A stretch of 64,000 nt of DNA from positions 79,362 to 143,361 of the forward strand of contig CAZVZC010000002.1 in assembly GCA_964631415.1 (NCBI GenBank). The letters are read 5' to 3'. Position numbers and translations under genes: made by a program. Below are positions 56,351 to 58,933 of the stretch, piece by piece. Every line of letters starts with the position of its first letter. The stretch's first letter is position 1. The notes below the pieces were generated by a model. The model made no database searches, was not told where the DNA came from, and saw only the letters and a list, made by a program, of their open reading frames with translations. The DNA is from an uncultured archaeon (GTDB lineage Archaea; Asgardarchaeota; Thorarchaeia; Thorarchaeales; Thorarchaeaceae).

Positions 56351-56749
56351 ATGAGCGAGAGTGACTTGGACGTTGAGCTTGAGTTTGAGGGCGGACCGAC
56401 TATCACGGCTGTCATTGACAGAGTGTTGGGTCCACTGATCGTCGAAGAGATCAAGTTCCGACTGCCCATTGTTGCGAAAGCGGCGGTCATGGCCGGGCAG
56501 GTGAAGATGACCCTTGGCATATCCAAGGGGAACCTCAAGGCTACTAGTGAGGTTAAGCGGGGGGACATGGCATACAACCCGCTAGGAGACTCCCTCGATG
56601 TTTACCTCAAAGACATGCACACCTTTGGGCCGGTAAATCTGATCGGCAGGATAACATCGAACAGTGAGGCCCTACAAAGGCTGGGCACGATAAGGCGCGG
56701 GGGAAGGGTCACAATAAGAGCGGCACACGATGCAAAAACGAGGAAATGA
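56351..56749 (+). CDS. Cyclophilin-like fold protein (DUF369/TM1367 type)
   Basis: RLPI, VKRGDMAYNPLGDSLDVY, PVNLIGRI; TTTTAAG box upstream. Confidence 0.8.
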   Translation: MSESDLDVELEFEGGPTITAVIDRVLGPLIVEEIKFRLPIVAKAAVMAGQVKMTLGISKGNLKATSEVKRGDMAYNPLGDSLDVYLKDMHTFGPVNLIGRITSNSEALQRLGTIRRGGRVTIRAAHDAKTRK

Positions 56750-56755
56750 AACTGA

Positions 56756-57307
56756 CTAGACGCGTTCCAAGTTTCGAATCACGGCCTCGGCCTCATCCAC
56801 TCCCATAACCGACGGGTCTACTGTCATTCCTGGATCCTGAGTTTCGATGACTACCTCCATGCCCGAGTCAGTCACCCTCTTGAACCCCATGCTGGATACA
56901 GGTCGAACCCGGAGCTGAGTTGTATCGAACTCTGCCTTACGAACAGCTTCGACAGTCATGGTCTCCTTGCGAATCTTCGACCTCGCGACACGCAGTCGCT
57001 CATTCAGCTCGGCTACTTGGTCTTGGAGCTTGTTCTTCGTCATTATTGCTTCGCTCAGATTCGTCTTGAGCTCCTCATACTGAGCGCGCTCAACCAGACC
57101 GGCCTTGGGGTCGACCCAAGTCAAAGTAGTGCCGTCAGACCTACGCTTTGTAGATACGAAGCCCAAAGCCTTGAGTATCGCAACAATGTCGTAGACTCTC
57201 CGCTTGGGACTCTGGAGATTCTCAGCCAGAACATCGCTTCGTATACCTTGGGTACCGCACTCCTCAAGCAGACGTATCGACTCCTGAGCAAGGTCCACGA
57301 GCTTCAA
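56756..57307 (-). CDS. E2F/DP-like winged-helix transcription factor with coiled coil
   Basis: LAENLQSPKRRVYDIVAILKALGFVS...LTWV, then a leucine heptad and a beta-rich C-terminus. Confidence 0.8.
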   Translation of the reverse strand: MKLVDLAQESIRLLEECGTQGIRSDVLAENLQSPKRRVYDIVAILKALGFVSTKRRSDGTTLTWVDPKAGLVERAQYEELKTNLSEAIMTKNKLQDQVAELNERLRVARSKIRKETMTVEAVRKAEFDTTQLRVRPVSSMGFKRVTDSGMEVVIETQDPGMTVDPSVMGVDEAEAVIRNLERV

Positions 57308-57583
57308 TGTTTCACCCCGACAGTGCGAAATAGTCTCCTCAGAGCAGCTCCGGAACGATTACCGACCTGACGTATTTAGATGTTGTTATTATGTTTCGAT
57401 TTTGCGAAAGACGGTTCTAGAAACCAATAGCTCGGTTTTTTGGCATGTCATTTTTCGACGGACTCAAGCTCAACTCGAATCCTAGAGCGAGCCCGTCCTT
57501 CCGAGTGGGGAGTGCTTGACAACACCAATAGCTTATTACGTACGACAAAGGCTCGTCGGCCGACCAACAAGGAGGTTCATACC

Positions 57584-58933
57584 ATGGCGGCTAAATCAAT
57601 GAGCAGGACTAGGGTGATCATCATGGGCGCAGCGGGCCGTGATTTCCATAACTTCAACGTCTTCTTCAGGGACAACGAACAGTACGAGGTTGTGGCGTTC
57701 ACTGCGGAGCAGATACCCGGCATTGAGGACAGGATCTATCCTCCAGAGCTCTCAGGGAAGCTCTATCCCAAGGGTATCAAGATATACCCCGAACAGAAGC
57801 TACCGGAACTCATACAGAAGTTTGATGTTCATCAGTGTGTTCTGGCCTACTCCGATCTGCCCTACGAAACAGTCGGGCACAAGATAGCTTGGGTGAACTC
57901 TCTCGGTCCAGACTTTCGAATCATGGGTCCCAAGACCACCATGCTGAAGAGCAACAAACCGGTCATTGCCGTCTGTGCGGTAAGAACTGGGTGCGGGAAG
58001 AGCCAGACATCCAGAAAGATCAACACTCTACTCGTCCAGATGGGTTTCAAACCTGTGAATATCAGGCACCCAATGCCCTACGATCCGGATTTGACGACAC
58101 AGATAGCACAAAGATACGCCACGTTGGCTGACATGGACCGCTACAACTGCACCATCGAGGAACGCGAAGAGTATGAACCCATGATAACCGCAGGTGTCAC
58201 TTTGTACGCAGGCGTTGACTACGGCAAGATACTCGATATGGCGCAGAAGGAGGCGGACGTCATCACATGGGACGGTGGAAACAATGACTTCTCCTTCTAC
58301 AAGCCCGACCTGCTCATTGTCGTGACCGACCCGCACAGAGCAGGTCACGAAGTCACATATTATCCCGGTGAGACTAACCTGAGAATGGCAGATGTTGTCA
58401 TCATAAACAAGATTGATACAGCAGACTATGAAAACGTCGAGAAGGTCAGGGCAAACATAGAGAGAGTGAACCCCAAGGCAATCGTCATTGATGCCGCCTC
58501 TCCTCTGACCGTTGGGGATGTGTCGGTGATCCGTGGGAAGAGAGTCATCGCCATTGAAGACGGCCCAACTGTCACGCACGGCGGCATGGCCTACGGAGCG
58601 GCGTACATTGCGGCACGCAAGTTCGGAGCCACGATTGTTGACCCCAGACCTTTCGCTGTCGGCACGATTCAGGCCACGTTTGAGAAGTACAAGCATCTCA
58701 GAGACGTGCTGCCTGCCATGGGCTATGGGAAGGCACAGATGAAGGAACTAGAAGAAACCATCAACAAGGCAGACGTGGACGCCATTGTTGTGGGGACACC
58801 TATTGACCTGACGCGTCTTCTGAAGATTAACAAGCCCAGTACCAGAGTGAGGTATGATCTGCAGGAGATAGGGAAGCCCGACCTTCTAGATGTTCTGACA
58901 GATTTCGTAAAGAAGCACAAGCTCAAGAAATAG
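57584..58933 (+). CDS. COG2403 P-loop protein ('cyclic 2,3-DPG synthase/GTPase'), likely arginine synthetase ArcE type
   Basis: IMGAAGRDFHNFN, AVRTGCGKSQ, RHPMPY, TIEEREEYE, WDGGNND, EDGPTVTHGG, LPAMGY; ATG 57584 after GGAGGT. Confidence 0.8.
   Translation: MAAKSMSRTRVIIMGAAGRDFHNFNVFFRDNEQYEVVAFTAEQIPGIEDRIYPPELSGKLYPKGIKIYPEQKLPELIQKFDVHQCVLAYSDLPYETVGHKIAWVNSLGPDFRIMGPKTTMLKSNKPVIAVCAVRTGCGKSQTSRKINTLLVQMGFKPVNIRHPMPYDPDLTTQIAQRYATLADMDRYNCTIEEREEYEPMITAGVTLYAGVDYGKILDMAQKEADVITWDGGNNDFSFYKPDLLIVVTDPHRAGHEVTYYPGETNLRMADVVIINKIDTADYENVEKVRANIERVNPKAIVIDAASPLTVGDVSVIRGKRVIAIEDGPTVTHGGMAYGAAYIAARKFGATIVDPRPFAVGTIQATFEKYKHLRDVLPAMGYGKAQMKELEETINKADVDAIVVGTPIDLTRLLKINKPSTRVRYDLQEIGKPDLLDVLTDFVKKHKLKK

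Follow-up and report, generated by a model that had tools for sequence, protein, structure and literature searches.

A stretch of 64,000 nucleotides from an uncultured archaeon of the family Thorarchaeaceae (Asgardarchaeota; GenBank assembly GCA_964631415.1, contig CAZVZC010000002.1, positions 79,362 to 143,361 of the forward strand), hereafter called the window, carries on its minus strand a short gene that resembles the eukaryotic E2F and DP transcription factors. We consider it likely that this gene encodes a member of the Asgard E2F/DP winged-helix family, namely a small regulator that binds DNA and acts in homodimeric form. The layout of the gene and of its product is as follows.

56756..57307, minus strand: Asgard E2F/DP-like gene, 183 aa, with a TTG start and its stop codon at 56756-56758 (from the list of open reading frames, ORFs, and the translation)
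57313..57318, minus strand: Shine-Dalgarno-like GGGGTG, 5 nt upstream of the TTG and at the same position in the upstream regions of Thorarchaeia orthologues
57110..57307, minus strand: winged helix-turn-helix (wHTH) DNA-binding domain, residues 1-66, assigned to the E2F/DP family by PF02319, by the family profile against PDB and by hhalign
57188..57202, minus strand: RRVYD recognition-helix motif, residues 36-40, aligning with RRIYD of E2F4 and E2F8 and with RRVYD of DP2
56939..57088, minus strand: coiled coil, residues 74-123, a predicted parallel in-register dimer zipper (a single AlphaFold2 helix with a predicted local distance difference test score, pLDDT, of up to 96)
56807..56935, minus strand: conserved four-strand beta domain, residues 125-167, specific to the Asgard E2F-like proteins (AlphaFold2 pLDDT 88-92)
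56762..56794, minus strand: C-terminal helix, residues 172-182, seen in the AlphaFold2 models; Thorarchaeia have it, whereas in other classes it varies or is missing

The TTG start is supported because the Thorarchaeia orthologues begin, with MKL, at the same place behind the conserved GGGGTG. Judged from its sequence, the N-terminal part of the protein (66 residues) is an E2F/DP-type wHTH whose recognition helix carries an invariant RRxYD base-contact motif. The Pfam model PF02319 (E2F_TDP) matched residues 6-56 with 34.7 bits (cut-off 25.7) and an E value of 1.5e-8; since this E value comes with a score above the curated cut-off, the match is not due to chance. In a Pfam scan of 41 Asgard relatives, the same model was above its cut-off in 41/41 (best E 6.5e-11), and R36, R37, Y39 and D40, together with the wing residue W64, were invariant among them. 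When the profile of these relatives was compared with 177,635 PDB sequences, E2F8 (E 1.3e-11), E2F4 (1.2e-6) and DP2 (0.013) were retrieved, the rest of the matches being coiled coils only. Alignment of the family profile with a eukaryotic E2F by hhalign gave a probability of 96.3% (E 1.8e-9, 102 columns). A search for long relatives retrieved PF02319 proteins and no others, and no NCBIfam model matched the query protein.

In the AlphaFold2 model of the wHTH, computed from an alignment of 31 orthologues, helices span residues 3-17, 24-31 and 35-48 and a hairpin spans residues 51-64. A first-pass annotation, made from the letters of the window and their translations, had anticipated much of this. 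Its reading of an E2F/DP relative in an archaeon was borne out by the PF02319 search that it had proposed; residues 36-40 do map to 57202-57188, where it had placed RRVYD; the wing that it had described as ending in LTWV is TLTWV, residues 61-65; and the coiled coil and beta-rich segment that it had put next correspond in AlphaFold2 to a long helix (74-123) followed by four strands. It had also considered that RRxYD might fail in orthologues and that the best matches might be generic TrmB/ArsR wHTHs: at the sequence level the motif is conserved in the orthologues, and the fold matches are generic, as expected.

The gene occurs in one copy and has been conserved in many lineages of the Asgard archaea. 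Close homologues, about 183 aa in length, came almost entirely from Thorarchaeota metagenome-assembled genomes, and a scan of 1.8 billion representative proteins returned 37 matches only, the named ones coming from Thor-, Hel-, Loki-, Odin-, Baldr- and Ranarchaeia (NCBI names one of them 'E2F family transcription factor'). A fish 'tenascin-X-like' protein of 4736 aa (P0123, E 1e-31) was discarded as a false positive, in which 15 weak FN3-like repeat matches had been summed and which is devoid of RRxYD. Across 400 Asgard species genomes, the family profile matched 140, with PF02319 above cut-off in 136, and several large Asgard families had no match at all. Within the window's own family, orthologues of the same length were present in 76 of 85 genomes, usually in one copy; the window's genome holds a single PF02319 copy, as do nearly all Thorarchaeia genomes. 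PF02319 was above cut-off in none of 14 control genomes, three archaea among them.

We then placed the DNA-binding domain in an unrooted maximum-likelihood tree of 41 such domains, which resolves three groups and holds few eukaryotic sequences: the 28 Asgard sequences lay on one side of a branch with support 94/90, and the eukaryotic domains fell into an E2F/first-domain group and a DP/second-domain group. This tree speaks against a recent transfer from one eukaryotic subfamily. Together with the single copy it is compatible with an origin before the E2F/DP duplication, and equally with a sister relation to the E2F type, because three groups do not allow the root to be placed.

The presence of the E2F/DP family in Asgard archaea is already published, as the first-pass annotation had suspected, and the locus adds no new member of note. 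In Supplementary Information 4.1.5, Eme et al. 2023 (Nature 618:992, PMC10307638) describe E2F/DP homologues in most Asgard groups and their absence from other archaea, with the base-contact residues conserved; in the text concerned with these proteins, homology is given as confined to the DNA-binding domain, the regulator-binding and dimerisation domains being lacking. The table of eukaryotic signature protein (ESP) sequences in supplementary file 5 of that paper holds, under E2F/DP PF02319, a same-genus orthologue from Thorarchaeota OWC3, which is near-identical to the query and whose contig coordinates, 8505-9056, coincide with a match of our genome search (G333:C47). Many Thorarchaeia orthologues and several of the homologues found here (Sif, Thor) are entered in the same ESP table. 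The first mention of Asgard E2F/DP proteins is, according to Eme et al. (PMC10307638), that of de Mendoza & Sebé-Pedrós 2019, and a 2024 review (PMC7617429) repeats the point. Beyond this literature, the tail with its predicted self-pairing and the conservation of a cyclophilin-like neighbour, both described below, are modest additions.

The tail that follows the winged helix is predicted to be a dimerisation module, analogous in position to the coiled-coil/marked-box of E2F and DP, with the coiled coil and the beta domain forming a parallel homodimer. The homodimer prediction scored 0.47, against 0.00 for the best of three controls; among proteins of solved structure, 20 of 30 same-chain pairs attain this mark and 1 of 23 single chains does, and passing it may partly reflect likeness to solved coiled coils. 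Between runs, the contacts agreed by at least 87%, with a partner pLDDT of at least 77. The best-defined contacts were in register (84:84, 87:87, 94:94, 98:98, 101:101 and 105:105), and the contacting residues followed a heptad pattern (Y77, L80, L84, I88, L94, V98, L101, L105 and I112). The coil is predicted to be parallel because the contacts run in register along this hydrophobic heptad.

The beta domain (residues 125-167) was of low confidence in the first AlphaFold2 run, which used the alignment of 31 orthologues. With 68 more diverse sequences, a run on residues 104-183 gave strands at 131-136, 142-147, 152-156 and 161-166, with pLDDT 88-92 over the four strands, followed by the C-terminal helix. 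In the dimer model, residues 130-132 of one chain form a strand pair with 153-155 of the other, and helices 1 and 3 bring the two winged helices into contact. The first-pass annotation had proposed a homodimeric, pre-duplication E2F/DP relative: the homodimer found backing in this complex prediction with its controls, while the pre-duplication origin is compatible with the data and no more, given the single copy, an Asgard group outside the eukaryotic domains and an unplaced root.

The coil is not found in all relatives. In some Asgard families, a short form joins the winged helix directly to the same beta module (P0132, P0136, P0143, P0146, P0148, P0149, P0153 and P0155; loci L027 and L040-L042). 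The beta module is thus the constant companion of the DNA-binding domain and the coil is not, because the coil-less forms keep the beta module. In other Asgard families the winged helix alone is held in common and the tail is different (L026, L028, L043 and L044).

These elements suggest how the protein may work. Residues 74-123 would zip two chains together as a leucine-zipper-like coil, the small beta module would be shared across both chains, the two wHTH domains would be in contact, and the dimer would set two identical RRxYD helices on a symmetric or pseudosymmetric DNA site. Such a dimer would regulate transcription, possibly from its own promoter as well, and may act together with the neighbouring cyclophilin-like protein.

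A relation of the beta segment to the marked box found no support. PF16421 and PF08781, the coiled-coil/marked-box models, matched none of the 41 relatives at E values up to 10, and a genome search with PF16421 did not match the E2F-like locus. When the tail, with or without the coil, was aligned by hhalign with the C-terminal parts of one E2F protein and of two DP proteins, the result was at the level of shuffled controls. The profile of the beta module had no match in Pfam or among PDB sequences, and fold searches with the beta domain, comprising two VIA-align runs and the Foldseek search that had been proposed for the C-terminus, returned no match. Homology between the beta domain and the marked box is therefore without support from sequence or monomer fold, and is unproven rather than excluded. 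A likeness of plan remains, with the coil directly after the wing and then strands shared between chains.

This likeness is the basis of a reading in which the full ancestral E2F architecture is present, the coil and beta domain being a true coiled-coil/marked-box homologue and the protein a homodimeric forerunner of E2F-DP in all three domains. The E2F1-DP1 coiled-coil/marked-box structure 2AZE is a parallel dimer with strands pairing between the chains after the coil, and the predicted archaeal dimer follows that plan; the domain order and the position of the coil after the wing match as well, and the gene is single-copy, with the Asgard sequences outside both eukaryotic groups. Moreover, the hhalign alignment to a eukaryotic E2F runs collinearly from the DNA-binding domain into the start of the PF16421 region. 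A collinear alignment over a coiled coil is, however, weak evidence for homology of the coiled-coil/marked-box, the profile and shuffled-control results given above point the other way, and the beta module measures about 45 residues and is present without the coil in some lineages. We regard a complete ancestral architecture as rather unlikely.

The gene next to the E2F-like gene is the following.

56351..56749, plus strand: cyclophilin-like gene, PF04126, 132 aa from ATG 56351 (31.8 bits, cut-off 27)

This gene and the E2F-like gene are convergent, and 6 bp separate their stop codons. The two genes adjoin in 16 of 16 Thorarchaeia genomes examined and in 16 of 21 informative genomes of other families. 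The pair is thus seen in 32 of the 37 informative genomes, spanning 11 GTDB families and three orientations (loci L001-L046). The arrangement is mostly convergent; in two genomes the genes stand in tandem with the cyclophilin-like gene first, and in a coil-less form they stand in tandem with it second (tandem: G123, G124 and G042). The cyclophilin-like gene is the sole neighbour conserved beyond Thorarchaeia. Because their adjacency has been kept through rearrangements, a functional tie between the two genes is suggested. PF04126 itself is more broadly distributed than the E2F-like gene, occurring in 289 of the 400 genomes, including families without an E2F-like gene.

A bolder proposal can be built on this tie. 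The E2F-like and cyclophilin-like genes would form an ancient two-part Asgard regulatory module, in which the partner binds or modifies the beta domain and so controls the dimer, and the pairing domain of E2F-DP, which later became the target of eukaryotic regulators such as Rb, would have its archaeal forerunner in the coil and beta tail. We think it quite improbable that this proposal holds as a whole.

The remaining neighbours are more restricted. On one side stand the vWA, Cdc48N-like and amidohydrolase genes, on the other a CobW-like P-loop gene; all of these are neighbours within Thorarchaeia only, and the vWA cluster is missing at the E2F-like locus even of one Thorarchaeia genome (G389). 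A functional link to the vWA/Cdc48N/amidohydrolase cluster as a general feature was rejected on these grounds, and with it the tie to the adjacent vWA cluster that the first-pass annotation had singled out for study. The CobW/HypB/UreG-like P-loop ORF (57440-58933, plus strand) is listed from TTG 57440; its start is probably ATG 57585, behind AGGAGG, and the orthologues cover only its last 89-90%. At a same-genus locus (L016; G334:C3:783642-796187), the vWA, CobW-like and long Cdc48N-vWA fusion genes are each in several consecutive ORF pieces, which may reflect frameshifts or errors of assembly; at this locus both the E2F-like gene and the cyclophilin-like gene are intact.

The region upstream of the E2F-like gene contains one conserved element.

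57397..57407, minus strand: conserved upstream element TCGCAAAATCG, at about -100 relative to the start, a short way upstream of a TATA-like CTAAATA

In most Thorarchaeia orthologues, TCG(N1-2)AAAATCG is found on the same strand at -83 to -152. In the window's genome TCG(N)AAAATCG occurs at chance level, its other copies lying inside genes; in five other Thorarchaeia genomes there is an enrichment of the 11-mer TCGRAAAATCG, with 33 sites where the reversed control has 4, and the motif is about equally frequent in Thorarchaeia genomes without a detected E2F-like gene. Being at chance level here and present without the gene, the element could not be assigned to the E2F-like factor. Two further observations were made on TCGRAAAATCG: it forms an inverted pair about 600 bp apart, apparently at one conserved locus (G313:C7:119194/119789; G324:C44:4831/5435; G364:C14:36444/37062; G351:C114:1352/1956), and in G313 most of its copies are intergenic or at gene 5' ends.

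Several points weigh against a homodimeric regulator of the E2F/DP type. The dimer is so far a product of structure prediction, and Eme et al. (PMC10307638), in the text on the Asgard proteins, state that these have no dimerisation domain. In a Foldseek search with the wHTH, generic winged helices lead (Z-alpha, MepR, ArsR and AspA), and E2F4 appears only at rank 45 (TM score 0.74, 27% identity); the wHTH fold is too common to discriminate, and membership of the E2F/DP family is a matter of sequence comparison, where it is clear. No E2F-type regulon was found in word counts, in intergenic DNA or in the regions upstream of ThyX and ribonucleotide reductase (RNR). The words TTTSGCGC, TTTSSCGC and TTSGCGCSAA were no commoner than composition-matched control words in the window's genome, nor were they concentrated in its intergenic DNA, their intergenic fraction of 8-10% being the genome's intergenic share; in five other Asgard genomes, E2F-type words were no commoner than the reversed-pattern control. 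The promoter motif scan that had been proposed at the outset thus gave no enrichment. The few intergenic sites of this type precede unrelated genes (MetRS, an EamA transporter, an M1 peptidase, Elp3 and others), and neither ThyX in the window's genome nor RNR at 30 Thorarchaeia loci has an E2F-type site upstream. Finally, the sole conserved upstream element is unlike a GCGC palindrome and is not tied to the presence of the gene.

Some observations made along with the target search are recorded here. RNR (PF02867) was detected in only 31 of the 85 genomes of the family and was not found in the window's genome or genus. Several Thorarchaeia RNR reading frames measure 1000-1400 aa in place of about 670, and their Pfam match falls into two parts, a pattern that inteins would produce (L058, L066-L068, L071, L073, L078, L079 and L084). 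Two genomes from the same family share a conserved GC-rich block, GGTTGTGTTGGCGCC, which is set in otherwise AT-rich DNA about 130 nt upstream of their E2F-like gene (L024 in G007 and L029 in G006), and at L025 a GGCGCC stands 25 nt before the E2F-like start. The block and the GGCGCC may represent E2F-like sites or belong to an unannotated RNA.

The empty regulon search would also suit a protein that is not a gene-specific transcription factor but a dimeric wHTH-coil protein with a chromosome-level role in replication timing, segregation or nucleoid organisation. The plasmid centromere-binding protein AspA is among the top Foldseek matches of the wHTH, and in several relatives the coiled coil has weak matches to YabA, ZapB and DivIC; a JGI record bears the name 'regulator of replication initiation timing'. 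These coiled-coil matches are, however, below cut-offs and in a type of sequence where such matches are common, no replication or segregation gene stands beside the E2F-like gene in any locus examined, and the only significant family assignment is to E2F/DP, whose known members are transcription factors. We rate a chromosome-level role as very improbable.

That the protein is a generic archaeal wHTH regulator of the TrmB, Lrs14 or ArsR type, brought near E2F/DP by convergence on a short motif, is largely refuted and has next to no chance of being right: 34 of the 41 relatives have TrmB (PF01978) as their second-best Pfam match (best E 5.2e-6) and the structural matches of the query wHTH are generic, but TrmB reaches only 17.2 bits in the query, under its cut-off of 25.6, where E2F_TDP passes in every relative, the family profile retrieves E2F and DP from PDB and no other wHTH family, TrmB, ArsR and MarR chains included, at E values up to 10, the control genomes are without PF02319, and the similarity to E2F spans the whole domain, beyond the motif, in hhalign.

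The homodimeric E2F/DP-type regulator thus stays our preferred reading. If the protein does have a dimerisation module of its own, as predicted, this would correct the published statement and make a symmetric DNA site the expected target, and the cyclophilin-like neighbour is a concrete candidate partner. In eukaryotes the G1-S transition is driven by E2F/DP, and among prokaryotes the family is shared by Asgard archaea alone; for this reason, the mode of action of the archaeal protein bears on the origin of cell-cycle transcription.

Compared with known systems, the protein shares with TrmB/Lrs14-type regulators the general wHTH fold, a small size and archaeal origin, and has weak secondary Pfam and NCBIfam matches to them; those families lack the RRxYD signature, the query falls below their cut-offs, and the family profile retrieves none of them from PDB. 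The Asgard E2F/DP homologues of Eme et al. 2023 (PMC10307638; arCOG02749) are the same protein family as the query, and the two readings of the DNA-binding domain agree. They differ in the tail, since a conserved coil and beta module are predicted here to homodimerise where that text gives no dimerisation domain, and in the cyclophilin-like neighbour, which that text does not mention.

With eukaryotic E2F1-6 and DP1/2 (PF02319 with PF16421/PF08781; 1CF7, 2AZE and 5TUU), the archaeal protein has in common the RRxYD winged helix and the wing Trp, as well as a coil that starts right after the wing and, by prediction here, joins two DNA-binding domains in parallel. Eukaryotic E2F-DP is a heterodimer of paralogues, whereas the archaeal protein is a predicted homodimer of one gene product. 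Unlike its eukaryotic counterparts, it has no N-terminal arm before helix 1 and no detectable similarity to the marked box (PF16421/PF08781), and it ends at residue 183, after the beta module and one helix, with no apparent C-terminal region for transactivation or for binding of pocket proteins (Rb). An E2F-site regulon, which canonical factors have through TTTSSCGC-type sites in front of genes for replication and dNTP synthesis, is not visible for it.

Among PDB sequences, the family profile matches the E2F7/E2F8/DEL type (4YO2) best (E 1.3e-11), although the archaeal domain lies outside the E2F7/8 groups in the tree. Both obtain two RRxYD helices without a DP partner, the archaeal pairing being a predicted one: E2F7/8 carry two DNA-binding domains in one chain and no coil, whereas the archaeal protein has one DNA-binding domain per chain and would bring two of them together through its tail.
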